Shown here in pieces: positions 15,640 through 64,000 of a DNA stretch of 64,000 nucleotides. Numbering within the stretch: the stretch's first letter is position 1; the number at the start of each line of letters is the position of its first letter. The notes below the pieces were generated by a model. That model had not been told where the DNA came from and did not search any database. It saw only the letters and a program-made list of their open reading frames with translations. Location of the stretch: assembly GCA_001784805.1 (NCBI GenBank), contig MFSE01000021.1, positions 4,241 to 68,240 on the forward strand, read 5' to 3'. The position numbers and the translations under genes were made by a program. The DNA comes from Candidatus Moranbacteria bacterium RIFOXYA12_FULL_35_19. Lineage in GTDB: Bacteria > Patescibacteriota > Minisyncoccia > Moranbacterales > UBA2206.

Positions 15640-15642
15640 TTG

Positions 15643-31299: not shown

Positions 31300-31315
31300 A
31301 TTTTTTGAATTTTTG

Positions 31316-31333
31316 ATCCGCCAGTTGGCGGAT
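31316..31333 (+). promoter_or_regulatory. GC-rich hairpin 30 nt downstream of VR (atccgcc-agtt-ggcggat)
   Basis: 7-bp GC stem with a 4-nt loop, placed just 3' of the VR-TR homology as in characterised DGRs. Confidence 0.6.
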
Positions 31334-31627: not shown

Positions 31628-31760
31628 ACCGACTCTGACGGCTATCCGAACGTGTTCAATGTGAATCGCAACGATGACGGCAAGTCGTGGCTGAATGACA
31701 ATTGGGCGAAGCCTGACAACAAGTGGAATGCTGACAATGAGATTGTCTTTCGCCTCCGAA
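31628..31760 (+). repeat. DGR template repeat (TR)
   Basis: Adenine-rich (AAC/AAT codons in the VR frame); ends with gtctttcgcctccgaaag (IMH*-like); lies in a locally GC-richer, probably structured transcript region. Confidence 0.9.
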
Positions 31761-31778
31761 AGTATTTTCTTTTCCGCA

Positions 31779-46115: not shown

Positions 46116-47258
46116 TTATAATAAATTTCGTAAAACTTTTTCTCTTCTTTTTTTCTCATCCCAGGAAATTGGGTCGCCTAATTTATAGGCAGTGGTTCCG
46201 GGGCGAGGGGAATATTTATTGATGTAGGCTTCGTTAAATTGCACTTTTTTAAAAACTTTGACTGATTCCTGAAAATCTTTTTCAGTTTCACTAGGAAAGC
46301 CAACAATTACATCAGTGGTAAAACTCACGCTGGGGATTATTTTTTGCGCTTTTTTAATTAAATCTAGATAATGTTTTTGGGTGTATGGCCGATTCATGGC
46401 TTTCAAAATTTTGTTGCTTCCAGATTGAATGGGCAGATGAATTTCTCGGGAAATATTTTTATTTTTGGCAATTACTTTCATTAACTTTTCGGAAAAGTCT
46501 TTAGGGTGAGAAGTCAAGAATTTAAATTTAATTTCAGGAAAAGATTGAGCGAGGGAATTAAGAAGTTTCGGAAAATTATAATTACCCGCCTCATCGGCGG
46601 ATGAATTCTTATCGATAAATCGATAAGAATTCACATTCTGTCCCAACAAAATTATTTCTTTGCAATTTTTTTTCGCTAGATTTTTAATTTCTTTTAAAAT
46701 ATCTTGAATTGGTCTTGAAATTTCTCGACCTCGGGCATAAGGCACGACGCAGTATGAGCAGAAATTATTGCAGCCAGTCATAATGGGGATATAGGCGGTG
46801 TGTTGGTTGGTGTATTTTGGGATAATAGTTAGATAATTGTCATTGCGAGGGAGCGTAGCGACCGTGGCAATCTCATTCTTAGCAATATTTTGCTTAATAT
46901 TTCGAGATTGCTTCGCTATGCTCGCAATGACATCAGGAAAATCCTTTATCTCGCAAAATAAATCAACTTTATCTTTTAATCTTCTCTGCACATCTTTTCG
47001 ATTAGCAAGGCAACCCGTAAGAATTATAAGTGGTTTTTTTGTTTCATGCTTCATGTTGCGTGCTACATGAATATTATGTATTTGCCCATAAACACGATCC
47101 TCCGCCATTTGTCGCACACCGCAAGTATTGAAAATAACCAAATCAGCTTTGTTTATTTCTTTTGTCGGTTTAATTTTTTGCGATTCTAAAAAGCCTGCAA
47201 TTCGCTCGGAATCACTCTCGTTCATTTGACAACCGAAGGTTTTAATGTAATAATTCAT
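46116..47258 (-). CDS. miaB: tRNA-i6A37 methylthiotransferase (radical SAM MTTase), with in-frame repeat-element insertions
   Basis: MNYYIKTFGCQMNESDSE N-terminus, CNNFCSYCVVPYARG radical-SAM motif. Confidence 0.9.
   Translation of the reverse strand: MNYYIKTFGCQMNESDSERIAGFLESQKIKPTKEINKADLVIFNTCGVRQMAEDRVYGQIHNIHVARNMKHETKKPLIILTGCLANRKDVQRRLKDKVDLFCEIKDFPDVIASIAKQSRNIKQNIAKNEIATVATLPRNDNYLTIIPKYTNQHTAYIPIMTGCNNFCSYCVVPYARGREISRPIQDILKEIKNLAKKNCKEIILLGQNVNSYRFIDKNSSADEAGNYNFPKLLNSLAQSFPEIKFKFLTSHPKDFSEKLMKVIAKNKNISREIHLPIQSGSNKILKAMNRPYTQKHYLDLIKKAQKIIPSVSFTTDVIVGFPSETEKDFQESVKVFKKVQFNEAYINKYSPRPGTTAYKLGDPISWDEKKRREKVLRNLL
46839..46931. repeat. 93-nt palindromic element (family 3) in-frame in miaB
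   Basis: gtcattgcgag...ctcgcaatgac termini; the reverse complement is ~85% identical to 63313-63405 in argS; encodes VIASIAKQSRNIKQNIAKNEIATVATLPRNDN. Confidence 0.85.
47040..47075. repeat. CATGAAA-family half-element inside the miaB coding sequence
   Basis: gtttcatgcttcatgttgcgtgctacatgaa encodes NIHVARNMKHE. Confidence 0.6.
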
Positions 47259-47332
47259 TTTCTAGTTCTTAAGAAGATAGTACTCTAAATAGAGTACTAA
47301 AATATAAACATTTAGGCAACAAGGAGGAGGAT

Positions 47333-47623
47333 GTGATGGATAAGGAACATTTAAGAATATTAGAAGAAGCTCACCGGACGGGAGGTGCTGTTAATATTAT
47401 TTTTAAAAAGAGTAATATTATACCCGATTCTGTTGGAGTGATTACGGAGATACTTGATCTGTATAATAATGATGAGCCGTGGATAGAATTGTTTAATGGA
47501 GAAGAAGGATTGAGATATAACTGTCGATCTATCGAAAAAGTCGAAGCTAAATCTATAAAAGATTTGCTTCGTATGTTCAAAGAAAAGATAGCGAAGGTAA
47601 AAAGATTTTTAGATAATGTTTGA
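47333..47623 (+). CDS. hypothetical protein
   Basis: 96-aa ORF diverging from miaB; the palindrome tagtactct-aaat-agagtacta lies in the shared upstream region. Confidence 0.4.
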   Translation: MMDKEHLRILEEAHRTGGAVNIIFKKSNIIPDSVGVITEILDLYNNDEPWIELFNGEEGLRYNCRSIEKVEAKSIKDLLRMFKEKIAKVKRFLDNV

Positions 47624-47640
47624 AAAAAAGTCAAACTACT

Positions 47641-47677
47641 AAAAAAAGTGGGCATGTTCCTTGGAACTGTCCACTTT
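47641..47677. terminator. bidirectional terminator (aagtgg-gcatgttccttggaactgtc-cactt)
   Basis: Between the 47333 gene (+) and thrS (-). Confidence 0.5.
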
Positions 47678-47733
47678 TAATTTTTATAAAGAAGGTATAT
47701 AGGAAGATTGAAGTGTACCTTTTTTTATTTTTT

Positions 47734-49530
47734 CTACTTAATTTCTGCAATAACCTTTTCAATAAACTTTTCAACTTTCATAACTTCTTGCTTGCCCGCC
47801 ATAGCTTTAGCGTCGGCGGGCTCTTTTTCCTTTCTTGATCGAACAGCGACAGAATTATCGGCTTCTTCTTTTTCTCCCACTACTAGCATGTATGGAATTT
47901 TTTGTTTTTCGGCTTCGCGAATTCTTTTGCCAAGCGATTCTGATTCGTCGCTAATTTCTACACGAATATTATTTTCTAATAATTGCGAATATATTTTTTG
48001 CGCGTAAGAATTAAATTTTTCACTCACTGGTAAAATAGCCACTTGCACTGGAGAGAGCCAAAGCGGAAACGCGCCAGCGAAATGTTCAATGAGAAGAACC
48101 AAAAATCTTTCGTAAGATCCTAAAATTGCACGATGCACCATAACTGGAGGAACTTTTTCACCTTTTTCATTTATATACTCAAGGCCGAATCTTTTTGGAG
48201 TGGCAAAGTCAATTTGGACAGTAGGAATTTGAATTTCTCGTCCAGTCGCATCCTTAAACATAAAATCTAATTTTGGTCCATATAATGCTGCTTCGCCCTC
48301 TCTTTTTTGAGCATCTAATTTTATTTCATCAGAGATTTCTTGAAGCATTTTTTCACAAATGTCCCAGTCTGATGATTCGCCTATATATTTTTCTGGATGA
48401 TCATAGTCTCTAACAGAAAGAGAAACCCAATGATTATCCCATAAACCAATAGAACTATATAAATCCTTAATAATATTTACCATATTTTTAATCTCATTTT
48501 TTACTTGATCAACTCTACAAAAAGAATGACCATCTTCAACTGTGATGGCATAAACCCTAGAGAGTCCACCGACCTCGCCGGTTTTTTCAGCTCGGTACAT
48601 TTTATCTGATTCCATATATCTTATAGGTAAATCTTTGTAGGATCTTGTTTTAGAAGCATAAAGCTGGGTATGATGAGGGCATTGAACTGGTTTTAGGACA
48701 AAATTATGTTTTTTATCTGATGTCACATGAAACAATTCATCGCCAAATTTTTTAGCATGCCCAGAAGTTTCAAAAAGTTCAATCTTTGCTAATGCCGGAG
48801 CCGATACTTTTTCAAATCCATAATGGCGACAAATTTTTTCTACTTCTTTTTTAAGCTCCTCTATTATAGTTGTTCCTTTGGGAGTAAAAAGGGGAAGTCC
48901 TGGACCGACTAAATCAGAAAAACAAAACAGATCTAATTCTTTCCCAAGTTTTCGATGATCTCTTTTTTCCGCTTCTTCGAGCATATGCAAATATTCATCT
49001 AATTCTTTTTTAGTTTCAAAGGCGACGCCATAAATTCGCTGAAGCATTTTGTTTTTTTCATCTCCTCGCCAATAGGCACCGGAAATTTTGGTGAGTTTGA
49101 AGGCGTCAAAAGGAATTTCGCCAGTAGAATCAAGATGTGGGCCAGAGCAGAGGTCGATGAAGTTGCCGGATTTGTAAACAGAAACCATTTTGTCTGCCGA
49201 TGAGGCAGATTTTTTCTCTAAATCCTTAATCAACTCAACCTTATATGGTTGTTTCGCCTTTTTGAAATCTTTCAAAGCTTCTTCGATTGAAATTTCTGCT
49301 TTTTCAAAAGGATGATTGGCTTTGATAATAGCTTTCATTTTTTCTTCCAAAATTTCCAAGTCTTCTGGAATGAGAGTTCGCGGAAGATCAAAATCATAAT
49401 AGAATCCGTTTTCAATCGCTGGTCCAATGGCAAACTTAGCTTCCGGAAACATTTGGAGAACTGCTGATGCTAAAACATGGGAAGTTGAGTGGCGCAAGAT
49501 GTCTAAATTAGTTTGTGATTTTTTTGGCAT
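47734..49530 (-). CDS. thrS: threonine--tRNA ligase (no N-terminal TGS extension)
   Basis: Class II aaRS motifs, HRKLGKELDLF, anticodon-binding C-terminus. Confidence 0.9.
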   Translation of the reverse strand: MPKKSQTNLDILRHSTSHVLASAVLQMFPEAKFAIGPAIENGFYYDFDLPRTLIPEDLEILEEKMKAIIKANHPFEKAEISIEEALKDFKKAKQPYKVELIKDLEKKSASSADKMVSVYKSGNFIDLCSGPHLDSTGEIPFDAFKLTKISGAYWRGDEKNKMLQRIYGVAFETKKELDEYLHMLEEAEKRDHRKLGKELDLFCFSDLVGPGLPLFTPKGTTIIEELKKEVEKICRHYGFEKVSAPALAKIELFETSGHAKKFGDELFHVTSDKKHNFVLKPVQCPHHTQLYASKTRSYKDLPIRYMESDKMYRAEKTGEVGGLSRVYAITVEDGHSFCRVDQVKNEIKNMVNIIKDLYSSIGLWDNHWVSLSVRDYDHPEKYIGESSDWDICEKMLQEISDEIKLDAQKREGEAALYGPKLDFMFKDATGREIQIPTVQIDFATPKRFGLEYINEKGEKVPPVMVHRAILGSYERFLVLLIEHFAGAFPLWLSPVQVAILPVSEKFNSYAQKIYSQLLENNIRVEISDESESLGKRIREAEKQKIPYMLVVGEKEEADNSVAVRSRKEKEPADAKAMAGKQEVMKVEKFIEKVIAEIK

Positions 49531-49619
49531 TTCTTTACGAATTACGAATCTCGTACACCTGCCTGCCGATAGGCAGGAATATACGAAATAAGAATTCTAA
49601 ATTATTTAACTTAAGCTTA

Positions 49620-49960
49620 AAACAACAAAACCCCGTCTCAAAAATTCAAAGTACTACGCATAGTACAGAATTCTTGGGACGGGGCTCTTTTTTTATTTAC
49701 GTAAATAAGTAAGTATTATAATACGTATTAAAATATGTAATTCCCGCGGTTCCACCCAGATTTATTTACCTTGTCATCCTGAACTTGTTTCAGGATCCCG
49801 AGAGAGATGCTGAAATAAATTCAGCATGACAGATAAAGACACTTTTTGACTAAACGCTAGTTCTAGCGGAAGCTCCGCGATTGGTGAGGTCGCATCGACG
49901 CTTCTAAATAAGAGTCTAATATTTTTTACTGTTTTAGTCAAATGGGGCTTTACGCATTTC
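49620..49960 (-). promoter_or_regulatory. T-box riboswitch leader upstream of thrS
   Basis: Minus strand reads aaatcUGGGUGGAACCGCGGgaa (T-box motif) at 49743-49762. Downstream terminator ccccgtc...gacgggg + UUUUGUUGU at 49621-49700. ACC triplets in the upstream stem. Confidence 0.6.
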
Positions 49961-50017
49961 TTTTTATATGCTAGAATAAAATTTCTAAAATAATAAGCAA
50001 TTTAGGTAAAAATCATT

Positions 50018-51229
50018 ATGAAAACTCCAGAGGAAATTAGAAAACACAAGAGAAATCAGAATATTATTTCCGCATTAATATTAATTTTAGGAACTTTTTT
50101 TGCTTATATTTTTTTTGGTCCGAAAAATCAGGATAAGCAAATAGAAAGTGTTCAGGAAACAGCTTCTTTGGTTAAGGTTATGACCATTTCGCAGGATTCT
50201 TCAAAAAAAGCTAAATTAGAAAAAACAGTTTCTCTAAGCGCTGGTGGAGGACAAGCTCAAGTCATTTCAGAATTTTCCGGAAGAATAAAAGCGGTTAATT
50301 TTGAAGTAGGAGAAAAAGTTAGTGAAGGACAAGTGTTAGCTATTTTTGATCAATCCGAAAGTCAAAATTCTCTAAGGGTTTCTTTGGAATCAGTTGAAAA
50401 AAATTATCAGTTGACTAAGGATAATTTAGAAGAGACTAAGGATTTAGTGGAAAAAAATATCGATCTAGCTAATCGCGCAGTTAAGATAGCTGAAATTGGA
50501 AAAGATCAAGCCAATACGGATGATGAGAAAAATTTAGCTGAACAAAATTTGAAAATTGCTAAAGATCAAAAAAAGCAAGCGGAGGTTTCAGCTGAAATTC
50601 AAATTAATGGAGCAAAAATTCAGTTGGAACAAGTTGCTCAAGCCTTGAAGCAGTCAAAAATTGCTTATGAGAAAACAATTATAAAGTCTCCAATTTCTGG
50701 GGTAATTAATTCAAAGAAAATAAACCCCCAAGATTTTCTAAGTCTAGGGCAAGTCGTAGCTTCAGTTGTGGGAGAAGGAAAGGTTGAAACCGTGCTGTAT
50801 CTAAATCAAGAGGAAATTGATCGGATAAAAATAAATGATAGCGTAGAGATAGTAATTGATGGAAAAAATTATAGTGGAAAAATAGATTCGTATTCGAAGA
50901 TTGCTAATGAGAATAATGGTCGTTTTGAAGTGAAAATAGTTTCTACGGATAATATATCTAGAAACGCTAATCAGACGGCGGAAGTTTTTTTGAATATATA
51001 TTTAGCCAATCAAGCTTCATTTTTTGTGCCGTTGGACTCAGTTAACATCGGGCAAACTAAAAAAGAAGTTTTCGTTGTAAGGGACGGAAAGGCTGTGGCG
51101 AAAAATGTTGAACTGGGGAAAATAATCGGAACGCAAATAGAAATTTTAAGTGGCCTCGAAAACGGAGAGGTTCTAGTAGTTGAAAATAGTCGCAATTTAC
51201 AAGATGGACAATTAGTAAAGTTAAAATAA
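50018..51229 (+). CDS. efflux RND periplasmic adaptor (HlyD/membrane-fusion family)
   Basis: N-terminal TM, long coiled-coil, beta-barrel C-terminus; translationally coupled to the RND permease. Confidence 0.8.
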   Translation: MKTPEEIRKHKRNQNIISALILILGTFFAYIFFGPKNQDKQIESVQETASLVKVMTISQDSSKKAKLEKTVSLSAGGGQAQVISEFSGRIKAVNFEVGEKVSEGQVLAIFDQSESQNSLRVSLESVEKNYQLTKDNLEETKDLVEKNIDLANRAVKIAEIGKDQANTDDEKNLAEQNLKIAKDQKKQAEVSAEIQINGAKIQLEQVAQALKQSKIAYEKTIIKSPISGVINSKKINPQDFLSLGQVVASVVGEGKVETVLYLNQEEIDRIKINDSVEIVIDGKNYSGKIDSYSKIANENNGRFEVKIVSTDNISRNANQTAEVFLNIYLANQASFFVPLDSVNIGQTKKEVFVVRDGKAVAKNVELGKIIGTQIEILSGLENGEVLVVENSRNLQDGQLVKLK

Positions 51230-51230
51230 A

Positions 51231-54200
51231 ATGGAAGAAGATATAATGCGAGAAAAAGAAAAACTTGAAAAGGAGGCGAAGGAATTTGAAAATTCTCCTT
51301 GGCTTTTTTTTGTGAGAAAAAGCAAACTAACATACCTTGTGATTATTTTTCTTTTGATATTTGGAATTTCTACTATTAAAAATTTACCAAAAGAACTTAA
51401 TCCAGAAGTTGAAATTCCAATTGTGCTAGTTATTACGGCATACCCGGGAGCCTCTCCAAGTGATGTCGAAGATCAGATTACTGATAAGATAGAAAGTCAG
51501 ATAGGTGATTTGGAAGGGGTAAAAAAAATTACATCAGATTCTTCATTAGGTGTTAGCGCTATCACGGTTGAATTTGAAGCTGGGGAGGATTTGGATGTGT
51601 CTGTGCGAAAACTTAAGGATAAGGTTTCTGAAGTGACTGACTTGCCAGAAGATGTAATAACGCCAATTGTTAAAGAAATTAATTTAAACGATCAGCCAAT
51701 TATAACGGCGGCTATTTCGGGCGCTAATTATGATTTGACTGAACTCAAGACTTTTGCCGAAAATTTGAAAGATAATATAAAAGGAGTTCCTTTTGTTTCA
51801 GATGTCGTAGTGGTGGGAGGAGTTGAAAAACAAATAAGGATTGATATAAATTCCCAAAAACTTTCTGCCTATGGTTTTTCTCTGCAACAGATAATCGCAA
51901 TTATTTCAGCTAATAATTTAGATTTTCCAATTGGAGAAATTGCATTAGAAAATTCAAACTATTCAGTTCGTATGACTGGCCAACTCAAAAATGTTGGGGA
52001 AATTTCCATGCTTCAAATAGGGGAAAAATTAGGCGTGCCAATTTATCTTGAAGATGTGGCAAAGGTGACAGACACTTTTGAAAAAGTAAGTTCAAAATCT
52101 AGAATTTCTACAAACGGAGGAGAGGCGCTGAACGCTGTTTCAATTCAAATTTATAAAAGAACAGGTGGGGACATAATAAAAGTGGCAAGCGAGGCAAGAG
52201 AAAAAATTGAAAATGCTCGCGGAGCAGATTATCCTCAAGATGCGAAGGTGACTATTACATTGGATTTTTCTGAAATGATAAATGAGAGTATCGACACTCT
52301 AAGTAGTAATGGAATTCAAACAGTAATCCTTATTCTGGTTTTACTTTTCTTTTTCCTAGGTTTAAGGGAGGCTCTTATCGCAGGACTTAGCGTGCCATTT
52401 TCTTTTTTTGTGGCGTTTATTACGATGAGCATTTTTGGGGAGAGTTTAAATTTTATCTCACTCTTTTCATTAGTGTTAGCACTGGGGCTCTTAGTTGATT
52501 CAGCCGTAGTGATTGTAGAAGGGATGTATGAAAAAGTTTCTGTTTTTGGTCTTAGCGGATTTCAATCAGCTGTTTTGACAATTAAAGAGTATTCTGCGCC
52601 ACTTCTTTCAGGGATGCTCACAACAATTGGAGCTTTTATCCCACTTCTTTTTGTGATTGGAATTTTCGGTCAATTTATCAAGACTATTCCCGTAGTAGTG
52701 ATATCAACTCTTACGGCCGCTCTTTTCGTTTCTCTCACCATAATCCCAGCTATTGGAGCGGCAGTGATGCAACCTATAAAAAATGGTAACGAAGAAAAAG
52801 GAAGAATAGGCAAATTATTAGCGCGCATAAATTCAGAAATATTCCAAAAAATTTGTCAAAAAATATCTTTTATTTGCAAATCTAAACCAAGAAAAAGAAG
52901 AATGGCCACCCGTGCTTTTGAAAAAATTTCAAATAGCTACTGTGATTTTATTCCAAAAATCATTTCAACAAAAAAACAGAGAGTAAGAGTAATAGCGGGA
53001 GTGTGGATACTTCTTGCGGTTAGTTTTCTTTTGCCGTTGACGGGAGTTTTGAAGATGCAATCTTTTGTTCCGGCTGATACCGAATTCTTTTTTGTAAATT
53101 TAAAGATGCCCAATGGTACGGTTCTAGAAAAAACTGACGAGGTTGTTAGAAAAATTGAAGATATAATTAGGAAAGAACCCCAGGCGGATAATTTTGTGAC
53201 TAATGTTGGTGCGGGACTTGGATCTGCTTCGGGAATTTCTGGTGGGAATAATTCCTCTTCTAGTAACAGAGCTTTTTTGCAAGTTAATTTGACCAAGAAA
53301 GAGAATCGAGATGAAAAGAGTTTTGAAATTTCTAGTCGAGTTAGGAAGGAACTGGAGCGGGAGATAACTGAAGGCGAGATTATAATCGAAGAACAAGAAT
53401 CGGGCCCTCCAACTGGCGCAGCAGTTGAGGCAAGAGTCGAGGGACCTGATTTATTAGTACTTAGCCAAATAGCTTTAGATTTGAAACGGGAGTTAGAAAA
53501 AATTCCCACAGTTATTGATGCTAAGACTTCTATAAACCAAGCTTCTGGTGAATTTGTTTTTATCCCAAACAAGAAAGTTATTGCGGAGAATGGATTGAGC
53601 GTGGCTCAATTAGGTTTAGAAATTAGAAACGGAGTGAATCGAAACACAGATGAAAATATCAAAAAAGAAGGAGAAGAAATTTTTATAAATATTGGGCTAG
53701 AAGAAGACAAACTGAAATCAATTGAAGGCCTCAAGGATATTTCTGTGATAACTCCGAGAGGAAAAAAGATGTTTATCTCAGAATTAGGTCGTATTGAGCT
53801 TCAGCCATCACTGGCTTCTATTGAACATTATGACAAGGAAAGAATTATTTCGATAACAGGCGGAACCGATGGCGGAAATCCAACTGAAATTACCAATATC
53901 TTCAAAGAAAAAATATCGAAGATGGATATACCTGCAGGTTATCGGATTGATTTCGGCGGGGAATCTCAAGAATTGCAAGAAGTTTTTATGGATATGTTTA
54001 CTAAAATGATTATTGGAATAATCCTGATTTTGTTTATTCTCATAATTCAATTTAATTCTTATCGTCAAGTGCTAATCATTCTCTTTACCATCCCTTTGGC
54101 AATGATCGGCGTGATTTGGGGAATGGCACTGGCACGTTTAACTGTTGATATTCCGTCGTTTATCGGGATTGTTTCGCTAGCTGGAATCGTTGTTAACAAT

Positions 54201-54482: not shown

Positions 54483-54486
54483 AATA

Positions 54487-54515
54487 AAAAACTAGGCGTT
54501 GGCCTAGTTTTTTGA
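54487..54515. terminator. bidirectional terminator (aaaaactaggc-gtt-ggcctagtttttt)
   Basis: GC stem with A/T runs on both sides, between the RND permease (+) and the AI-2E gene (-). Confidence 0.65.
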
Positions 54516-54525
54516 TTTTGTATAA

Positions 54526-55638: not shown

Positions 55639-55771
55639 ATTTAACCTTGCGGAAAGTGCCTATTGCGCACATTTACAAAAAGCCTTATAATACAAGGGTA
55701 AATAGGGGAATAAATAATAATTAATTAAGTTTCATTCTTTTCTCACAAAAAAGAACGAAGCAAAAAAAGCA

Positions 55772-56053
55772 ATGACAAAAATGACAAAGTCACAACTGAT
55801 GTCAGCTTTGGCTGAAAAAACCGGACTTTCCAAAAAGGATGTCATCGGTTTTATGGATACGCTGGTTGAAATGGCGTATTCAGAAGTGAAGAAGAACGGA
55901 GTTTTCGTTCTTCCTGGTTTTGGAAAAATGGTCAAGGTTAACCGAAAAGCTCGAGTGGGAATCAACCCAGCTACAGGAGCAAAAATTAACATTGCTGCAA
56001 AAACTGTAGCAAAGTTCCGATTGGCAAAAGCTGCCAAGGAAGCTGTGATGTAA
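55772..56053 (+). CDS. hup: DNA-binding protein HU
   Basis: MTKSQLMSALAEKTGLSKKDV...GFGKMVKVNRKARVGINPATGAKINIAAK. Confidence 0.9.
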   Translation: MTKMTKSQLMSALAEKTGLSKKDVIGFMDTLVEMAYSEVKKNGVFVLPGFGKMVKVNRKARVGINPATGAKINIAAKTVAKFRLAKAAKEAVM

Positions 56054-56123
56054 TTTTACTTGAAACTGAAAAAGGCCTTGCGAAAGCCTGCCTCATCGGC
56101 AGACAAGCGGGGTCTTTTTTTAT

Positions 56124-56210
56124 GTTTTACGAACTACGAAATAAGCGAAATACGAAACAATAAAACTTTCTTTTCGTATTTCGTTAGTTTCGTAGTTCGT
56201 AAATTAAAAA
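56124..56210. repeat. TACGAAA-family hairpin element
   Basis: ttttacgaactacgaaataagcgaaatacgaaac ... ttttcgtatttcgttagtttcgtagttcgtaa. Confidence 0.85.
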
Positions 56211-56227
56211 TCTGTTATAATTAAAAA

Positions 56228-56779
56228 ATGCAAAAAGAAATTATTTTAAACAACCAAAAAATTCCTTATACTTTTCGCAAAAGCCGACGATCGAGATGTA
56301 TGCGCCTAACAATCAAAACTGACGCGACTTTGGTGGTGAGTGTGCCATGGCTGTTGAGTGGAAAAAAGGCGGAAGATTTTATCATGCAAAAGGCGGATTG
56401 GATTTTGGGGAAGATAAAACATTTTCAAAATAAGGAATCGAGCTTGCCGTCGGCAACGAGAAAAGATTATTTGAAATATAAAAATTTGGCGCGTGAGATT
56501 GTTGAAAAAAAGTTGAAATATTTCAATGAATTTTATGGTTTTTCATATAATCGAGTTTTCATTCGCAATCAAAAGACTCGTTGGGGGAGTTGTTCTAAGG
56601 TGGGCAACCTAAATTTCAGCTACCGGATAATCTATCTTTCCGAAAAACTTTGCAACTATATAATCGTCCACGAACTTTGCCACCTCGGCGAGTTCAATCA
56701 CTCCCAAGATTTTTGGGATCTCGTGGCAAAAACCGTGCCGGAGTATAAGAAGATAAGGAAAGAGATTAAGGGAATGTGA
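56228..56779 (+). CDS. YgjP/SprT-like (DUF45) zinc metallohydrolase
   Basis: C-terminal IIVHELCHLGEFNH (HExxH). Confidence 0.7.
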   Translation: MQKEIILNNQKIPYTFRKSRRSRCMRLTIKTDATLVVSVPWLLSGKKAEDFIMQKADWILGKIKHFQNKESSLPSATRKDYLKYKNLAREIVEKKLKYFNEFYGFSYNRVFIRNQKTRWGSCSKVGNLNFSYRIIYLSEKLCNYIIVHELCHLGEFNHSQDFWDLVAKTVPEYKKIRKEIKGM

Positions 56780-56785
56780 TTTTTG

Positions 56786-56850
56786 TTTTAAAAAAAGATA
56801 TGAAAAAAAGAGGCTTTTGACGGTTGTGTCGAAGCCTCTTTTTGCTGTAA
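56786..56850. terminator. bidirectional terminator (aagaggctt-ttgacggttgtgtcg-aagcctctt)
   Basis: Between the ygjP-like gene (+) and the 56856 gene (-). Confidence 0.5.
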
Positions 56851-56855
56851 TGGAT

Positions 56856-57404
56856 TTATGGGAGCTTTTGGTTTCTTGTGAATTCTCGATATGTTTCTTC
56901 CGCGGATATGTGGTGGCATCCACAGAGGCCTTCCTTAGCTTCTTCTAAGGTGTAATTTTCAACAAGACACTTATCGCATATTCCACCTCGCTGAGGCCAT
57001 AGAATATTATGATAAGCGGGACATTTTTTGCATTTTCTCCAACCGTGAATAACCTCTCTCCCTCTTTCAATGAGGTCATCTTCAATTTCTTCCAGAATAG
57101 ATATCTTGGAGATTGTAAGATACAGAAAAATTGCAATGATTACTGTGATAATAGGATTGGAGATGGTTAGTATTGTTTCATAACCGCAATAAAATAGTGT
57201 CACGAAGCAAAAAATAATAGCCATAAATACTAGTGCATAAAGCACTAAAGCAAATATTTTAAGTTTTATTATCAATGTCGCTGTCTCCGATTGATGCCGA
57301 TATTGCAAAGAACTTTGTTTCATTTTTCCACCTCCTGGATAAAAAATGATTGTTATTATAAAATCGCCTAATGGCAGTGTGGCATATAAAATTGTTTTTT
57401 TCAA
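56856..57404 (-). CDS. membrane protein with C-terminal Cys4 zinc-ribbon
   Basis: Two or three TM helices, then CKKCPAY...CDKC...CGCH. Confidence 0.45.
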   Translation of the reverse strand: MKKTILYATLPLGDFIITIIFYPGGGKMKQSSLQYRHQSETATLIIKLKIFALVLYALVFMAIIFCFVTLFYCGYETILTISNPIITVIIAIFLYLTISKISILEEIEDDLIERGREVIHGWRKCKKCPAYHNILWPQRGGICDKCLVENYTLEEAKEGLCGCHHISAEETYREFTRNQKLP

Positions 57405-57419
57405 GTGTCTGTCTTTTTT

Positions 57420-60400
57420 TTACCAAATATCAACCTTCCCCTCCGGCACAATTATTTTCAAAGCTTTTTCGAGCTCTGTGGTGTTTTGGATGCAGTAGGG
57501 GGTTTCGAGCTTGGATCCGCCAATGGAAAGATATACTTTCATAGCACCTAGTTCGCAACGATCAAATAGGGAGGAGAGATTTTTTAGGATGGCTTTGTCG
57601 AAATTTGGTGGGAGGGTAATAATTAATCTGGAAGATTTATTTGCCCTCTCTTGTCCCGACAAAGTCGGGATATACTCTCCCAAGGGGAGAGGAGGATTTT
57701 GAAGAGATTTTTTTGTAGGCTCACCGCCATTGTTTCTTTGCGTGTGGAGAATTCTTTTGAAATTTTCTAATTCTTGCTGGTTGATTGATTTGGCGCTGTC
57801 GCAAAGCAATTTGAATTCGCCGTCTTTGTCGGAAATTTTTCCCGTGGCTAAAATAATTTTGTCTACTTCCCAGATTGAACCGGTGGCTTCTAGAGTTTTG
57901 GGAAAAATCAAAATTTCCATTTGAGAAGTCGTATCTTCAATGGTGGCAAAAGCCATCATTTTTTGATTTTTGAGATAAATCTTTTTTATTTTGGAAATTA
58001 TTCCGCCGATGGAAACGGTTTGTCCAACCAGTTGAGGATTTATATTTCGAATTGGCACGGCCATTTTTTCTAAATAATCTTGATAATCTCGAACCGGATG
58101 ATCGCTAATATAAAGTCCAAGGAGTTCCTTTTCCCAAGCAAGCTTTTCTTTTTTAGAAGCCTCCACGGAAATCTCCAATTTTATTTCTGGCAATTTCATA
58201 TCTGCTTCTCCAAAAAGACTATTTTGTTTAGTACTTGAAATTTTTTCCAAATTTTTGGAGTGAGCGAGAATGTTTTCAATAGAAGATAAAACGGCATTTC
58301 TTTCGGCCAATTCTTCTAGCGCACCAACTTTTGAGAGAGCCTCAATGGATTTTTTATTCAAATCTTTATGCTTTACTCTTTCAATGAAATTAGTTAGACT
58401 CAAAAATTTTCCGCCTCTTTTTCTTTCTTCGACAATTTCATGAGCGACTGTGTGGCCGACATTTTTTACCGCATTTAATCCAAAGCGGATTTTCCCGCCT
58501 CGCGTCGACTCGCCTCGATCCGACAATCGAGTCGGAGCGGGCGAGCGATCGTCTCCGCGAGTCGAGGCGGGTTTAGTATTATTTTCTTCATTCATGATCA
58601 CGGCAAACTGCTCAAAACTTTCATTGACATTCGGGGACAGAACTTCGATGCCCATTTCTCGACACTCGGCAATTTCAATGGCGACACGATCAATATTGTC
58701 TTGATCAGAAGTGAGAAGCGCGGCCATAAATTCGGCTGGAAAATGCGCTTTCAGATAAGCGGTTTGATAGCCGACTAGCGCATAACACGCGGCATGACTT
58801 CTATTAAACCCATATCCCGCAAAAGGTTCGATGTAGGCAAAAACTTTTTCTCCAATAGTTCCGGCGATGCCTTGTTTCATACAGCCTTCAATGAATTTAT
58901 GTTTTTGCTCGGTAATCAGCGCAAAGATTTTTTTACCCATTGCTTTTCGAAGTACATCGGCTTCACCAAGAGTGAATCCGGCCAAGGCTTGAGCGATTTG
59001 CATCACTTGCTCTTGATAGACTGCCACACCGTAAGTTTTTTCTAAAATCGGTTTCAAATTCGGATGCAAATATTTAATTTCTTTCTCGCCGTGTTTTCTG
59101 GCGATAAAATCCGGAATCCAATCCATAGGACCGGGGCGATATAGCGCTACCATAGCAATAATGTCTTCAAGAACATTGGGCTTCAAGAGTTTTAGATATC
59201 TTTTCATTCCAGAACTTTCTAGTTGAAATACGCCGGTGGTGCGAGCTTCTTGCAAAAGGCGAAAAGTTTTTTTGTCATCCAGTGGTATATCGTCAATGTT
59301 GATTTCTTTTTGGCGAGTTTTTTTTACGATCTTAAGCGTGTTTTGAATAATAGTTAAATTTTTTAGTCCCAAAAAGTCCATTTTCAAAAGGCCAATTTTT
59401 TCCACAAAACTATATTTAGTCGAAGAAGAATATTGCGTCACAGTGCCGTCGCCTTTGCCGGTTATTTTTTGCAACGGAGTATATTCACTCACAGGTTCTT
59501 TGGTGATAACTACTCCGCAAGCATGCATCGAGGCATGACGCACCACACCTTCGAGCCGTCCGGCGCTGTCAATTAATTTTTTTCCTCCCTCATTATTTTT
59601 ATGCAAATCGCTAAATTCTTTGACATTTTCTAAAGCATCGGAAATTGTAGAAAACATCGGAATCATTTTAGCGGTTTTGTCGCAAAAGTCATAAGGCAGA
59701 CCGAGCGCCCGACCAGCGTCGCGGATGGCAGCGCGGGCGGCCATAGTTCCAAAAGTGATGATTTGCGCCACATGATCATTGCCATATTTTTTTCTCACAT
59801 ATTCCAAAACTTCATCTCTTCTGTCATCGGCAAAATCCATATCGACATCAGGCATAGAAATTCTTTCAGGATTCAAAAATCTTTCAAATAGTAAATCGTA
59901 TTTTATCGGATCAATATTAGTGATACCGATGAGATAGGAAACGAAACTTCCGGCAGCGCTACCGCGGCCGGGGCCAACCACGATGCCTTGTTCTTTGGCC
60001 CAATTGACAAAATCTTGCACGATCAAAAAGTAAGAAGCAAAACCAGTTTTTCTAATCACATCTAATTCATATTCCATTCTTTGTTTTTGCTCGGAGTCAA
60101 TATTCTCGCCAAATCTTTTTTTGAGTCCATCTTCGGTAAGACGCCGAAGATAAGTTTCAGCCGTATAACTTTGCGGAACATCAAATTCCGGAAGTTGAGT
60201 CTCCCCAAGTTTTATAGTAAGGTTGCATTTATCCACGATTTCTTGAGTATTAGCCAGTGCTTCGGGAATATTTTTGAAATGCTCGGCCATTTCCTCGGGG
60301 CTTTTGAGATAGAGCTCAAAAGCCATCAAATTCATGCGATTAGTTTCAGTAACTTTTTTGTTAGTCTGAATACACAGTAAAATATCTTGAATTTCATTGT

Positions 60401-61043
60401 CTTCTTTTTTTACATAGTGAATGTCATTGGTAGCGACTAGAGGAATATCTAATTTTTTAGAAATTGCGACAAGGGCATTATTGGCAATACTTTGGTTTTC
60501 AAATTTCGGATGATGTTGGATTTCTAAATAAAAATTACCTTTACCAAAAATTTCTTGATATTCTAGCGCCAACTTTTCTGCTTTTTCAAGATTGCCGGAA
60601 ATGGCGGTGGAAGGAACTTCTCCTTCGGCGCAAGCTGATAGCCCGATTAGTCCTTCAGAATATTTTCGAAGAATTTCTTTGTTGATTCTGGGTTTGTAAT
60701 AGAATCCTTCCAAATGAGCAATGGAAATTAGTTTCATCAAATTCTTATAGCCTTTTTCATTTTTGCAGAGTAAAATCAAATGATAGCGAGTTTTATCTTC
60801 TTGAGTATTATTTTTACTTAGATAATCTCCCGCGGTGAGATACATTTCACAGCCGATAATTGGTTTTATTCCTCGCTCTTTGGCTTTGATATAAAACTCA
60901 ATGGCGCCATAAAGCACGCCATGATCAGTAATGGCGAGAGAATCCATTCCCAATTCTTTGGCACGATCAAGAATGTCATCGACCTTGGCGAGACCGTCTA
61001 ATAGTGAATAGTGAGTATGGACATGGAGGTGGGTGAATTTCAT
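57420..61043 (-). CDS. dnaE: DNA polymerase III alpha subunit, carrying two in-frame GC-rich palindromic insertions
   Basis: PHP domain MKFTHLHVHTHYSLLDG, polymerase core, OB-fold; 1207 aa. Confidence 0.95.
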   Translation of the reverse strand: MKFTHLHVHTHYSLLDGLAKVDDILDRAKELGMDSLAITDHGVLYGAIEFYIKAKERGIKPIIGCEMYLTAGDYLSKNNTQEDKTRYHLILLCKNEKGYKNLMKLISIAHLEGFYYKPRINKEILRKYSEGLIGLSACAEGEVPSTAISGNLEKAEKLALEYQEIFGKGNFYLEIQHHPKFENQSIANNALVAISKKLDIPLVATNDIHYVKKEDNEIQDILLCIQTNKKVTETNRMNLMAFELYLKSPEEMAEHFKNIPEALANTQEIVDKCNLTIKLGETQLPEFDVPQSYTAETYLRRLTEDGLKKRFGENIDSEQKQRMEYELDVIRKTGFASYFLIVQDFVNWAKEQGIVVGPGRGSAAGSFVSYLIGITNIDPIKYDLLFERFLNPERISMPDVDMDFADDRRDEVLEYVRKKYGNDHVAQIITFGTMAARAAIRDAGRALGLPYDFCDKTAKMIPMFSTISDALENVKEFSDLHKNNEGGKKLIDSAGRLEGVVRHASMHACGVVITKEPVSEYTPLQKITGKGDGTVTQYSSSTKYSFVEKIGLLKMDFLGLKNLTIIQNTLKIVKKTRQKEINIDDIPLDDKKTFRLLQEARTTGVFQLESSGMKRYLKLLKPNVLEDIIAMVALYRPGPMDWIPDFIARKHGEKEIKYLHPNLKPILEKTYGVAVYQEQVMQIAQALAGFTLGEADVLRKAMGKKIFALITEQKHKFIEGCMKQGIAGTIGEKVFAYIEPFAGYGFNRSHAACYALVGYQTAYLKAHFPAEFMAALLTSDQDNIDRVAIEIAECREMGIEVLSPNVNESFEQFAVIMNEENNTKPASTRGDDRSPAPTRLSDRGESTRGGKIRFGLNAVKNVGHTVAHEIVEERKRGGKFLSLTNFIERVKHKDLNKKSIEALSKVGALEELAERNAVLSSIENILAHSKNLEKISSTKQNSLFGEADMKLPEIKLEISVEASKKEKLAWEKELLGLYISDHPVRDYQDYLEKMAVPIRNINPQLVGQTVSIGGIISKIKKIYLKNQKMMAFATIEDTTSQMEILIFPKTLEATGSIWEVDKIILATGKISDKDGEFKLLCDSAKSINQQELENFKRILHTQRNNGGEPTKKSLQNPPLPLGEYIPTLSGQERANKSSRLIITLPPNFDKAILKNLSSLFDRCELGAMKVYLSIGGSKLETPYCIQNTTELEKALKIIVPEGKVDIW
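57643..57695. repeat. GC-rich compound palindromic element (family 1) in-frame in dnaE
   Basis: gccctctcttgtcccgacaaagtcgggatatactctcccaaggggagaggagg encodes PPLPLGEYIPTLSGQERA; compare the miaA insertion SLPLGEMS. Confidence 0.8.
58494..58571. repeat. GC-rich palindromic element (family 2, cccgcctcg...cgaggcggg) in-frame in dnaE
   Basis: 78 nt = 26 codons (TKPASTRGDDRSPAPTRLSDRGESTR), absent from E. coli DnaE at this position; the reverse complement matches the intergenic copy at 16396-16437. Confidence 0.8.
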
Positions 61044-61046
61044 AAT

Positions 61047-61132
61047 GTTTTACGAAATACGAAATAAGCGAAATACGAAACGATTAAACTTCATTTTCGT
61101 ACTTTCGTATTTCGTTCATTTTGTAGTTCGTA
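61047..61132. repeat. TACGAAA-family hairpin element upstream of dnaE
   Basis: ttttacgaaatacgaaataagcgaaatacgaaacg ... ttttcgtactttcgtatttcgttcattttgtagttcgtaa. Confidence 0.85.
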
Positions 61133-61219
61133 ATTTGAGCGAAATAAAAACTGGTTCAAGCTAGTTGATAATCCAGTCGTTTAAAATAAAATAAAGTTTT
61201 GTCATATGATTATGTTCTC

Positions 61220-61700
61220 CTCATAGCCCGGGTTGCCCCGTTGGGTTTTGCAGGAGAATTAATAGCGATGCATATAGTTTAGCATAAAAATGAAACTTGA
61301 CAAAAAGCTGATGATAATATAAAAATTAAATATGTAGAGGGGCTCGTTTTTTGAACCCCATGGCGAAAACTATTTTTTTTTCTGCAGGAGTCCATGCTGA
61401 TGGGCTCCTGCAACAAGGAGGTGTAACATGAAAAGTCGTGGACACCCGGCGGTTTTCACCGCCAACACCAGAAGAGCAGTCTAAGTTGCCAAAGTGGCAG
61501 GATCCCTGAGTCGGCATTGCCCATTCAGGGTTCCTGCTCGCATATTGAGCCTTTAGTAGAAAGTTTCTTGTCTTTTATCCAAAAGACAAGAACAATACTT
61601 GAGGTTCTTTTTTTATGGAAAAATAAAAAAAGGGCTTCGCGCGGTTGTTGCGGAAACCCTTTCATGGGTTTTTTGGTGCCCTGTTTTAAGGGCACTGGAT
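61220..61700 (+). ncRNA. GC-rich structured region, candidate non-coding RNA (identity unresolved; RNase P RNA is one possibility)
   Basis: Local GC well above the surroundings. Multiple long hairpins, e.g. cagga-t-ccctga-N14-tcaggg-t-tcctg, ggcgg-ttttca-ccgcc, cttgtctttt-atcc-aaaagacaag. Ends with aaaccc-tttcat-gggttttttgg. GAGUCCAUGCU..GGGCUCC weakly resembles the P4 5' strand. Confidence 0.35.
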
Positions 61701-61970
61701 GTTGAATAGTTCGATTTTTTGCGGGAGCATCTCCTTCTTCATAAAAGTCGGAGAAATTAAATATTTTTCCCGTTGAAGATTAAATTCCTTAATATCAGAA
61801 TTTAACTCACATTTTTCTTCCTCGGGAATATCCTTTTGAGCGTTGGTAATTTGTGCCGAAAAGGAATTTAGTTCCTCAAGAATTTTAATTTCAGGATCGT
61901 CGTGATTTTTTCCGCAACCGAAAAGTATTATAGAAATAATGATACCGATAAAAATAACTCTTTTTTTCAT
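61686..61970 (-). CDS. putative lipoprotein
   Basis: MKKRVIFIGIIISIILFGCGKN signal peptide with lipobox Cys. Confidence 0.5.
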   Translation of the reverse strand: MKKRVIFIGIIISIILFGCGKNHDDPEIKILEELNSFSAQITNAQKDIPEEEKCELNSDIKEFNLQREKYLISPTFMKKEMLPQKIELFNIQCP

Positions 61971-62120
61971 TAGAAAACTCCTTTCTTTAGAGATCCGATT
62001 TTCTGATTAGTTTTAAAAAACATGGGAAAGAGTGGAGATAACTGACGAGGCAATTCCATCTCTCATCCGTCTTTCTTAAGATCTCGCGAATTACTACGCA
62101 GAATCCATCTGGTAATGTGA

Positions 62121-62360
62121 TCACTTGATCAATTTCCAGCTTTTTGTTTTTGCTGGAATATATTCTTGACAATCGCCAAGATCAATTCCGCTTTTAATAT
62201 CTCCTCCGATGCGACGAAAAGTTTTTGTAAAAATCTGATTTAACTTCTCGTCCCTTAATGTGCAGTTTACAACGGTCTTTTTTACGGAAAAATATAATAC
62301 AGCCAGAGATTTTCCGTAAAATTTCATTGTTGCGCCTTTATCTATGGAGCCTATAATCAT
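62121..62360 (-). CDS. hypothetical protein
   Basis: 79-aa ORF upstream of the lipoprotein gene on the same strand. Confidence 0.3.
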   Translation of the reverse strand: MIIGSIDKGATMKFYGKSLAVLYFSVKKTVVNCTLRDEKLNQIFTKTFRRIGGDIKSGIDLGDCQEYIPAKTKSWKLIK

Positions 62361-62431
62361 AACGGTTTCCTCCCTAATAGTTTATTGTTAAAAAACTTCC
62401 TCCTATTTTAACTATAGGTTATAATAGAATT

Positions 62432-63091
62432 ATGATTAAAGCAACCTTTAAATTAGAGGAGGAATTTTTAAGCAAAGGATATAAATTTATCATTGGTATT
62501 GATGAAGTGGGGAGAGGACCATTGGCTGGTCCTGTTGTTGCGTGCGCGGCTTCGATTAGGACATCGGATGTCCTCTTTGGACATCCGATGTCCAAAGAAT
62601 TTGAATTGATTCGTGACTCCAAAATGCTTTCGGAAAAGCAGAGGGAAAGCCTGTTTGATTTTATAGCTGAAAATTTTTATGTGGGCGTGGGGATTTGTGA
62701 TCATCGGACAATTGACCGAATAAACATCTTAGAAGCGAGCTTTTTGGCGATGAAGAGCGCGGTTTCGCAACTGAAATCAAAAATAAAAAATTTAGATAAT
62801 TCTAAATTAATAATATTATTAGATGGCAACAAAAAAATTCCCAACTTTTCTTTTGAACAACGGGCGATTGTGAGTGGAGATAAAATTGTAAAATCAATTT
62901 CGGCCGCTTCGATTTATGCCAAAGTGACCCGTGATCGCATGATGGGCGAAATGCATAAAATTTATCCCGAGTATAATTTTGCCCAGCACAAGGGCTATGG
63001 CACAAAAATCCATATGGACGCCCTCAAAAAGCACGGCCCCTGCGAAATCCACCGCAAAAGTTTCCGGCCAGTGAGGAAGTGTATGGTATAA
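62432..63091 (+). CDS. rnhB: ribonuclease HII, with small in-frame palindromic insertion
   Basis: GIDEVGRGPLAGPVVACA catalytic N-terminus; DSKMLSEKQRE; full-length RNase HII pattern. Confidence 0.9.
   Translation: MIKATFKLEEEFLSKGYKFIIGIDEVGRGPLAGPVVACAASIRTSDVLFGHPMSKEFELIRDSKMLSEKQRESLFDFIAENFYVGVGICDHRTIDRINILEASFLAMKSAVSQLKSKIKNLDNSKLIILLDGNKKIPNFSFEQRAIVSGDKIVKSISAASIYAKVTRDRMMGEMHKIYPEYNFAQHKGYGTKIHMDALKKHGPCEIHRKSFRPVRKCMV
62559..62593. repeat. two tandem 15-nt palindromes (ggacatcggatgtcc, ggacatccgatgtcc) in-frame in rnhB
   Basis: Encodes RTSDVLFGHPMS, absent from E. coli RnhB between AAV and DSKKLS. Confidence 0.7.
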
Positions 63092-63129
63092 AGTTGATTT
63101 TAGTTAGTATTTGAGATAATATGAAGTTA

Positions 63130-64000
63130 TGAAACACGAAATTCAAAAACTTATTAAAAAAGCAGTAAAAGAGCTTGGCTATAAAATAGACGAGGTTGAA
63201 GTTGACTATCCGAAAGTCGAAAATTTTGGTGATTATACGACGAATGTGGCGATGGTTTTGGCCAAGGGTGCGAAGAAGAATCCAATGGAAATTGCTGAGG
63301 AAATAATTGCTGTCATTGCGAGCGAAGCGAAGCAATCTCATAGTGTTAAGACTAATCTTGCTAAGAATGAGATTGCCACAGTCGCTATGCTCCTTCGCAA
63401 TGACAATAAGCTTTTCGAAAAAGTTGAGGTTGTGAAGCCGGGGTATGTTAATTTCTATCTGTCGAAAAAATATTTGCAAGATAAAGTTCAAGAGATAAAT
63501 AAACTAGAAAATAAATTTGGCGATGGCGAAAAGAAAAAAGAAAAAATAATGGTTGAATATTCCCAGCCGAATACACACAAAGAATTTCATATTGGGCATT
63601 TGCGAAATGTTTTTATTGGAAATTCTTTGGTTAATATTTTAAAGAAAGTTAAAAATAATGTTATTTCGGCTAATTATATTGGCGACACGGGAACGCATAT
63701 TGCTAAGTGTCTTTGGGGGATGGTGAAATTTTATTCAGACGAAAATTTAGACAGTATCAAGAATAAAGCGGAGTTTTTAGGAAAAGCTTATTCGCAGGCG
63801 TCAAAGGCTATCGAAGAAAATTCAGAACTCGAAAAAGAATTTAAGGATTTGCAAAAACAATTTGAAGCAGGCGATAAAAAATTAATTGAAATATGGGAAA
63901 AAACCAAACAATGGTCGTTGGATGAATTCCAAGAAATATACAAAGAATTAGGAGTGGATTTTGATGTTTATTTTTGGGAAAGTGAAGAAGAAAAAGCTGG
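63130..64000 (+). CDS. argS: arginine--tRNA ligase (3'-truncated by window edge), with in-frame 93-nt palindromic insertion
   Basis: FHIGHLRN (HIGH) motif; N-terminal add-1 domain; ORF runs off the window end. Confidence 0.85.
63313..63405. repeat. 93-nt palindromic element (family 3) in-frame in argS
   Basis: gtcattgcgagcgaagcgaagcaatctc...gagattgccacagtcgctatgctccttcgcaatgac; encodes VIASEAKQSHSVKTNLAKNEIATVAMLLRNDN, about 27 aa more than E. coli ArgS at this site. Confidence 0.85.

Follow-up and report, generated by a model that had tools for sequence, protein, structure and literature searches.

Introduction

Repetitive extragenic palindromes (REPs) with the head CGTC are the closest described relatives of the element reported here, a palindromic doublet of 93 nt that lies in frame inside the genes of two unrelated essential enzymes, a miaB-like gene and argS, of Candidatus Moranbacteria bacterium RIFOXYA12_FULL_35_19, an ultra-small groundwater bacterium of the candidate phyla radiation (CPR). 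The DNA analysed is a 64-kb stretch of this genome, referred to below as the window. In the survey of Di Nocera et al. (2013), CGTC-tagged REPs have the head CGTC, sometimes TGTC, a stem that starts with A-T and a 3-nt tail with the consensus CCA; CCTC is also listed among the heads of their units (PMC3733652). They occur mostly as doublets with spacers of 20-100 bp, have no linked transposase, are spread over several phyla, and include dRS3 of Neisseria as well as two Rickettsia palindromic elements (RPEs), RPE-4 and RPE-6 of Rickettsia conorii (PMC3733652). Dimers of CGTC or GTAG REPs also lie in frame in many genes, including those of the glycyl- and isoleucyl-tRNA synthetases (GlyRS, IleRS), and contribute 20-30 residues (PMC3733652).

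Translated palindromes are likewise described from Rickettsia, where RPE-1 and others occupy many unrelated housekeeping genes, as far as these accounts go (Ogata et al. 2000, 2002; PMC3733652, PMC10969869). The phenomenon is already known from these RPEs and from the CGTC and GTAG REP dimers (PMC3733652), and the present locus is a new example of it, not a new principle. What is new is the CPR host, a family with a composite hairpin and a very wide distribution, and the reuse of the same protein loops by different repeat families. A literature search on CPR together with REP, RPE or MITE (a miniature transposable element with inverted repeats) found no report of such repeats in CPR, a search for the terminal string of the element returned only unrelated primer sequences, and a 2024 MITE survey mentions neither CPR nor intragenic copies. 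The element is most probably a REP- or RPE-like repeat doublet tolerated in frame. Judged by its sequence, it is filed here as a putative further family of the CGTC-tagged kind, outside CGTC-1 to CGTC-4. With it, protein-coding palindromes, described so far from Rickettsia and a few other phyla, are seen in CPR as well.

The two copies in the window

The first copy lies within the MiaB-like gene and the second within argS (Table 1); the domains of both ORFs bear out the host genes named earlier. The minus strand from 46931 to 46839 reads GTCATTGCGAG...CTCGCAATGAC, and the plus strand from 63312 to 63404 reads GTCATTGCGAG...TTCGCAATGAC. The earlier note on this DNA, made from the letters alone, had located the miaB copy exactly and had placed the argS copy at 63313-63405, one base too far right. 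With one copy reverse-complemented, 80 of the 93 positions are identical (86%; binomial P ~4e-29), so the similarity of about 85% given earlier holds on careful alignment. Together the copies form the longest inverted pair of the window (105 nt at 85%). The 11-nt terminus GTCATTGCGAG, with at most one mismatch allowed, occurs four times in the window against 0.45 expected, and an nhmmer profile built from 525 arms of the family matched, over the 64 kb, the four arms of these two copies only. Both copies enter the host reading frame in phase 0 at GTC and are translated in the same sense, as had been noted; the two peptides quoted at that time are correct (Table 1), and each is followed by N.

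Each copy is composed of a short arm with the mini-hairpin GC-ATA-GC or GC-GAA-GC, a spacer of 29 nt, and a long arm with GG-GA-GC, a loop of GTA or ATA, and GC-GA-CC. The short arm of the miaB copy consists of the head (T)GTC, the outer stem ATTGC/GCAAT and the mini-hairpin GC-ATA-GC, and its long arm, read as the reverse complement, has the inner stem GG-GA-GC / GC-GA-CC around the loop GTA. All four arms read TGTC at the head, and the palindrome of the miaB copy extends over 46838-46932 once the T and A beside it are included. The perfect 11-bp terminal inverted repeats described earlier are confined to the miaB copy, where they reach 12 bp with the flanking T and A; in the argS copy one position does not match (TTCGCAATGAC). 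The inner stem GCAATCTC/GAGATTGC, also pointed out before, is present in both copies. Folded as single-stranded DNA, each whole copy reaches -22 to -26 kcal/mol, with z values of -4.8 to -6.9. An assembly artefact was considered and ruled out, because orthologous copies come from independent metagenomes.

Architecture of the family

Viral contigs in IMG/VR were scanned with a terminal pair of the GTCATTGCGAG type separated by a gap of 55-85 nt, and genome contigs with a stricter pattern requiring the terminal pair and both inner stems. The IMG/VR elements share the core GTCATTGCGAG-(C)GAAGCGAA-GCAATC(C/T), followed by a variable spacer and then by the reverse complement of the arm. In a doublet, two hairpin arms in inverted orientation, with (T/C)GTCATTGCGAG termini, enclose a variable spacer, and the total length is 77-105 nt. 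The arm consensus is (C/T)GTC-ATTGC-GA-[variable stem]-GNA-[stem']-GAA/GTG/GCG-GCAAT-C(C/T). The flank logo shows the palindrome to be one base longer on each side: among the 137 of 139 elements with enough flank, 88 have C and 44 have T at position -1, while 85 have G and 45 have A at position +1, and the head is therefore CGTC or TGTC.

Every arm has the outer stem ATTGC/GCAAT, so that the stem opens with two A-T pairs. The inner part was analysed in 334 distinct segments between GTCATTGCGA and GCAATC, which follow the plan of a stem of 1-11 bp, a triloop, the complementary stem, and then GAA, GTG or GCG, the dominant triloops being GAA, GCA, GTA and GGA. Positions of the inner stem pair as Watson-Crick or G-U in 76% and as G.A in 19%, compared with 22-27% pairing in shifted registers and 36% in shuffles. 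The composite stem thus described comprises 5 bp, a GA/GAA internal loop, a further 1-11 bp and a mostly 3-nt GNA loop, and this covariation indicates that each arm by itself is a predicted hairpin. Very stable DNA mini-hairpins, for example d(GCGAAGC), typically have GNA triloops closed by C-G. Solo arms were found at L245, L248, L264, L270 and L274 (L-numbers denote loci and P-numbers proteins of the comparison sets). The tail is GCAAT-CCA in many family members and GCAAT-CTC in the window copies and the strictly scanned subfamily. An Rfam search at gathering thresholds and at permissive E-values returned no relevant family.

Distribution and possible mobility

The terminal pair was found in more than 120 IMG/VR viral contigs among the matches listed, and the stricter pattern in more than 120 genome contigs among the matches listed, from at least 15 bacterial phyla. 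Hosts with the stricter pattern include Alpha-, Gamma- and Deltaproteobacteria; Dehalococcoidia, Anaerolineae and Chloroflexia; Planctomycetes, Bacteroidota, Patescibacteria (L126, L127, L174), Elusimicrobia, Atribacterota, Zixibacteria, Hydrogenedentes, Nitrospirota, Firmicutes, Cyanobacteria, Margulisbacteria, KSB1 and Aminicenantes, together with one metagenome-assembled genome labelled Halobacteria. Metagenome matches to a 19-base pattern numbered 35, of which about one third are chance matches in unrelated genes. Full copies also reside on Alphaproteobacterial plasmids, at no fewer than 40 places on one Novosphingobium resinovorum replicon, and single arms are found in Helicobacter canis prophages. 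Copies could plausibly have passed from phylum to phylum on viral contigs and plasmids. The termini are nearly invariant from Patescibacteria to Alphaproteobacteria, Chloroflexi and Bacteroidota, and in viral contigs too, and this conservation across phyla gives a better hold on the old question of how CGTC-type repeats move.

Preservation of the reading frame, which the earlier note had ascribed to the element, is not one of its properties. Element lengths modulo 3 are distributed as 81/80/68 over 229 distinct members, with no bias to multiples of three, and 18 of 21 copies at low-GC loci are intergenic, leaving 3 in long open reading frames (ORFs). This census covered the 21 family members at low-GC loci, because a long ORF carries information there; in the viral-contig set, a median GC of 63% makes long spurious ORFs common and ORF occupancy uninformative. 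The lack of a modulo-3 bias and the intergenic majority together imply that in-frame, stop-free copies are the survivors of selection.

The wide dispersal of the family agrees with its earlier description as mobile, but neither target-site duplication nor a transposase nor near-identical copies were found, and the miaB copy is old. Exact flank repeats of 2 nt are present in 8 of 139 elements, which is the chance level; among the same elements, 3-nt repeats occur in 1 and 5-nt repeats in 2, with none of 4, 6 or 8 nt. No transposase and no Y1-transposase match is present among the 53 window ORFs, and clustering of the ORFs around 275 loci gave no transposase and no recurrent neighbouring protein, only phage structural proteins and spurious high-GC ORFs. 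In this survey of neighbourhoods, none of the 275 loci had a full-length insertion sequence with these termini beside it. Among the neighbours at the genome and metagenome loci, only a RecG-like ORF recurs (L154, L241, L254), and in L254 the element lies in frame in it.

A conventional MITE, derived by deletion from an insertion sequence and dependent for its movement on a DDE transposase specific for the 11-12 bp terminal repeats, would explain the clear terminal inverted repeats, the size of 77-105 nt and the many dispersed copies, including those on plasmids and viral contigs. This origin is nevertheless unlikely, given that target-site duplication does not exceed chance, that no transposase gene was found in the window and no recurrent neighbour across the 275 loci, and that the arms are hairpins with covarying stems of variable length which also occur solo, features typical of REPs and not of transposase-binding ends. 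Intragenic MITEs such as ERIC, QMITE1 of Coxiella and others (PMC10969869) are similarly small, with terminal inverted repeats and in-frame fusions with host ORFs, but they are IS-like, with longer terminal repeats and target-site duplications, whereas the present elements have REP-like arms and no such duplications. The family is not a typical MITE because target-site duplication is absent.

Comparison with described palindromic repeats

The repeat doublet resembles CGTC-tagged REPs in its outward CGTC or TGTC heads, the A-T start of the stem, a short tail (CCA in many members), the inverted doublets, the occurrence of singletons, the lack of a linked transposase and the presence in many phyla; in both cases, in-frame peptides begin with V-I.., end with ..N-D or ..H-D, and are found in tRNA synthetases and repair enzymes. 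The families CGTC-1 to CGTC-4 differ in having a continuous stem of 8-9 bp and a loop of 4-5 nt, whereas the present family has a composite stem and a GNA triloop. No published intragenic peptide matches VIAS.AKQS, HCE.SEAI or SLR..R, the tail of the window copies is CTC and not CCA, and CPR hosts lie outside the 2013 survey. The element is placed outside CGTC-1 to CGTC-4 because its stem and loop dimensions do not agree with theirs and its peptides are not in the published table.

The likeness to Rickettsia RPEs concerns, as far as these are described, the residence in a small-genome, host-dependent bacterium, peptides thought to be surface-located and tolerated, and copies that are old and decaying. 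RPE-like in-frame residence in unrelated genes is seen here in MiaB, ArgS, a leucyl-tRNA synthetase (LeuRS), RecG and a PAS-GAF-HD protein. Going by its description, RPE-1 is set apart by a length of ~100-150 bp and a restriction to Rickettsia, the present family being shorter and found in no fewer than 15 phyla. RPE-4 and RPE-6 differ, in a comparison at the peptide level, by the peptides VIPWLDHGI, SFPRKRES, DSRFRGND and VIPAKAGI. REPINs, tied to REP-associated tyrosine transposases (RAYTs) in the REPIN-RAYT system (Bertels and Rainey 2011, PMC3116915), also join two inverted REP hairpins and a spacer into one long hairpin, are non-autonomous and lack target-site duplication (PMC3116915). 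They carry a GTAG head, are linked to a single-copy RAYT gene flanked by REPs and have lineage-specific sequences (PMC3116915), in contrast to the CGTC or TGTC heads and the termini conserved across phyla of the present family, for which no RAYT-like neighbour was found in the window or at the 275 loci. Because both the GTAG head and, within that scope, a RAYT gene are missing, the family does not belong to the REPIN-RAYT system.

The insertion in MiaB

The MiaB stretch between the conserved ..KDFP.. and ..NYL.. is hypervariable among the 120 listed CPR orthologues. The same element occurs in five of these proteins (P0006, P0008, P0010, P0015 and P0025), and variants (VIARNKATKQS..RFARDDN) occur in two. 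Other repeat-like peptides in this linker, judged from the peptide alone, are CHPELVSGS..QVRHDN, CHPERSEGS..PQND and ENWKLEIPA, the first of which resembles the published CGTC-2 peptide RHSELVSGS; in a few orthologues the linker is very short. The Bacteroides MiaB structure 7MJZ has its own linker of ~30 residues at the same position, and the element therefore occupies the MiaB interdomain linker and adds no new loop.

At the DNA level, three orthologues were compared (L276, L277 and L278), and the junctions are identical in these and in the window, with the gene order thrS-miaB-miaA-gatB conserved. The shared junctions and gene order point to a single old insertion, and the miaB copy is evidently, by this comparison, a vertically inherited, decaying insertion common to four lineages. 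Decay of the palindrome is visible in GAGCTTGC and AATAAC in L276 and in GTCATCGCGAG...CTCAAGATGAC in L278. Between the window and L276, 7 amino-acid changes and 1 silent change were counted by eye within the element.

Hairpins of 21 nt (7 codons) are themselves inserted inside the arms of the miaB element, with the form CCTGCC-N4-7-GGCAGG, or CCTGC/GCAGG in L276, and they are found in L276, L277 and L278, two of these lineages having them in the 5' arm and the third in the 3' arm. Peptides such as LPAGRQG, similar to the products of these hairpins, appear in other MiaB linkers. The MiaB-like protein stops right after its radical-SAM domain, as do most CPR orthologues, PF01938 being present in 2 of the 120 listed. 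A copy of a CATG-rich, heptad-like repeat found mostly upstream of genes also lies inside the MiaB-like ORF and encodes NIHVARNMKHETKK, a segment common to the orthologues P0007 and P0086; in most others the loop is shorter.

The insertion in ArgS and other in-frame copies

The argS copy falls in a loop of the N-terminal Arg_tRNA_synt_N domain. ArgS residues 61|93 align to 65|70 of the E. coli arginyl-tRNA synthetase (4OBY), a net gain of exactly 27 residues, in agreement with the excess of about 27 residues over E. coli reported before. The insert is in none of 82 full-length ArgS representatives and in none of 17 closer relatives (up to 65% identity), the nearest of which read ...EIILGNIQDDKFEKIEVVKPGY... 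at the insertion site; in one relative, P0277, this loop holds another repeat-like peptide. The public gene call for this ArgS, P0275 (504 aa), begins at MLLRNDN inside the element, although the ORF is open from 63129, and so omits the first 86 residues, including the first 61 residues of the N-terminal domain. Inserts of this kind mislead gene callers, as for P0275, lengthen aligned proteins and can fake signals of a shared motif between unrelated proteins.

Models of both proteins were obtained with AlphaFold2. For MiaB (95 sequences), the mean predicted local distance difference test (pLDDT) score is 86.6, with residues 126-138 below 50 and residues 110-120 continuing the preceding helix. 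For ArgS (44 sequences), the mean is 89.3, with residues 71-90 at ~51-55 between flanks of at least 94, and helix 52-68 continuing into the first seven residues of the element. In both models the first 7-11 residues of the element extend the preceding helix, and both peptides are modelled as sitting in low-confidence loops.

In-frame copies were also found in other genes. The LeuRS of Parcubacteria GW2011_GWB1_42_6 (L174) contains the copy VIASSERAKQSRSDAANREIASSQAPRNDD; its gene (1023-3800) carries three separate in-frame palindromic doublets, two of the present family and a third that is a classic CGTC-1-like unit (TGTTATTCCCGCACAAGCGGGAATCCAG...; VIPAQAGIQ...LDPRFHGDD). The RecG helicase of L254 contains CHCERSEAISKLNNEIATVAVLPRNDM, and a PAS-GAF-HD protein of a Thermodesulfovibrionales genome (L212) holds a further copy. 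All in-frame copies read EIA..(L/A)PRND at the 3' end and leave in the R-N-D frame. Of the two other exit frames, one ends in TGA (CAATGAC) and one reads LAMT; on entry, the termini have no stop codon in any frame.

These copies, with those that are intergenic or read in other frames, lie across phyla and in unrelated genes, which upholds the earlier view of a repeat family at the DNA level and not a shared protein domain. Protein alignments of orthologues, proposed at the same time, agree with it: ArgS relatives are without the peptide, and MiaB relatives have unrelated sequence in its place. A conserved domain common to both enzymes was ruled out, since the Pfam domains flank the inserts without covering them.

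Proposed origin of the in-frame copies and alternative readings

As a REP- or RPE-like doublet tolerated in frame, the element would have spread as DNA, with the peptides as a by-product. A copy landing in a gene would be translated where its length is suitable and its spacer free of stops, because the termini are stop-free on entry and one of the three exit frames is closed. It would persist only where the protein tolerates ~30 extra residues, in surface loops and interdomain linkers; it would thereby add a net 27 residues to a loop of the N-terminal domain of ArgS and fill the hypervariable linker between UPF0004 and the radical-SAM domain in MiaB. After fixation, the palindrome would decay and the segment would evolve as a loosely constrained linker. 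Dispersal itself may depend on a trans-acting enzyme that works on hairpins of single-stranded DNA; this is put forward tentatively, and we infer it from the GNA triloops, the lack of target-site duplication, the solo arms and the lack of a transposase in the window and at the 275 loci.

Several observations weigh against this reading of the element. Both window copies are genic and none is intergenic, which is unusual if most copies are intergenic; the coding density of the window is ~83%. Thermodynamic folding of single arms with nearest-neighbour DNA parameters gives z ~0, no better than shuffles, and support for the arm hairpin comes from covariation because these energies match those of shuffles. 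As to recent movement, neither identical copies nor presence/absence polymorphism were seen, the source genome being represented by the window only. In four lineages the reading frame through the MiaB insert has also stayed open, and the exit from the element is in the hydrophilic R-N-D frame in every independent in-frame case, so that some selection on the peptide is possible.

The last two observations are in keeping with a selected protein module, in which the 31-residue peptide is kept or spread by recombination as a useful surface, for instance for a shared partner or a CPR-specific interaction, and the palindrome is secondary; the common frame in both window genes and the helix extension modelled for the first residues also fit. 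Such a module is very unlikely, however. Most members of the family are intergenic or read in other frames (SLR.., HCE..), and when 5.8 billion proteins were searched with a profile of the two peptides, the only matches were four short spurious ORFs over intergenic copies. The ratio of amino-acid to silent changes between the window and L276 (7 to 1) and the low AlphaFold confidence over most of the peptide count further against it, as do the unrelated repeat-like peptides in the same MiaB and ArgS loops of other lineages.

A regulatory hairpin of RNA or DNA, with a long stem that influences transcription, the stability of the mRNA or the speed of translation where two domains meet, is the least probable reading and a highly improbable one: the predicted folds of about -22 to -26 kcal/mol are strong, both insertions are at domain boundaries and REPs elsewhere lie mostly at gene 3' ends and are thought to act as RNA (PMC3733652), but the decay of the palindrome in the orthologous MiaB copies of L276 and L278 speaks against maintenance of the long stem, there is no Rfam match, and GNA triloops point to DNA and not RNA hairpins.

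Returning to a tolerated repeat doublet, a broader and speculative extension, which is rather improbable as a whole, is that the (C/T)GTCATTGCGAG doublet may be pan-bacterial mobile DNA on phages and plasmids, copied by an enzyme that acts on single-stranded DNA hairpins with GNA triloops, and that in CPR it may, with several other palindrome families, remodel time and again the same permissive loops in essential enzymes of translation and tRNA modification. If true, this would provide a regular source of new protein segments in reduced CPR genomes.

Further features of the window

Table 1. Coordinates of the element copies, their host genes and other features of the window
Feature	Position	Strand	Description
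Element copy 1	46839-46931	-	93 nt = 31 codons; MiaB residues 110-140, VIASIAKQSRNIKQNIAKNEIATVATLPRND
Copy 1, short arm	46904-46931	-	GTCATTGCGAG-CATAGCGAA-GCAATCTC
Copy 1, central spacer	46875-46903	-	29 nt, AT-rich
Copy 1, long arm	46839-46874	-	GAGATTGC-CACGGTCGCTACGCTCC-CTCGCAATGAC
Element copy 2	63312-63404	+	93 nt = 31 codons; ArgS residues 62-92, VIASEAKQSHSVKTNLAKNEIATVAMLLRND
Copy 2, short arm	63312-63339	+	
Copy 2, spacer	63340-63368	+	
Copy 2, long arm	63369-63404	+	
Host gene 1, MiaB-like radical-SAM methylthiotransferase	46116-47258	-	UPF0004 + Radical_SAM, no TRAM
Host gene 2, argS	63129-64000 (runs off window end)	+	Arg_tRNA_synt_N + tRNA-synt_1d
miaA	45094-46110	-	IPPT; directly downstream of the miaB-like gene; part of the thrS-miaB-miaA-gatB synteny
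CATG-rich repeat	12846-12897, 26525-26561, 27344-27394, 47036-47074		Last copy inside the MiaB-like ORF
Diversity-generating retroelement	29353-33189		
Retroelement, target ORF	29353-31296		
Retroelement, variable repeat	~31150-31285		
Retroelement, template repeat	~31625-31760		
Retroelement, reverse transcriptase	32116-33189		RVT_1
Second palindromic family	9517-9647, 10661-10757, 14963-15076, 15545-15658, 16438-16493, 56115-56221, 61038-61152		~100-130 nt
Second palindromic family, partial copy	45485-45512		28 nt, inside the miaA ORF

The window also contains a diversity-generating retroelement with a target ORF, a variable and a template repeat, and a reverse transcriptase; the inspected mismatches between the repeats are A in the template copy. 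A second palindromic family is built of ACGAAAT/ACGAACT-like units (TTTACGAA.TACGAAATAAGCGAAATACGAAA ... reverse complement), and its copies lie mostly between genes or at gene ends.

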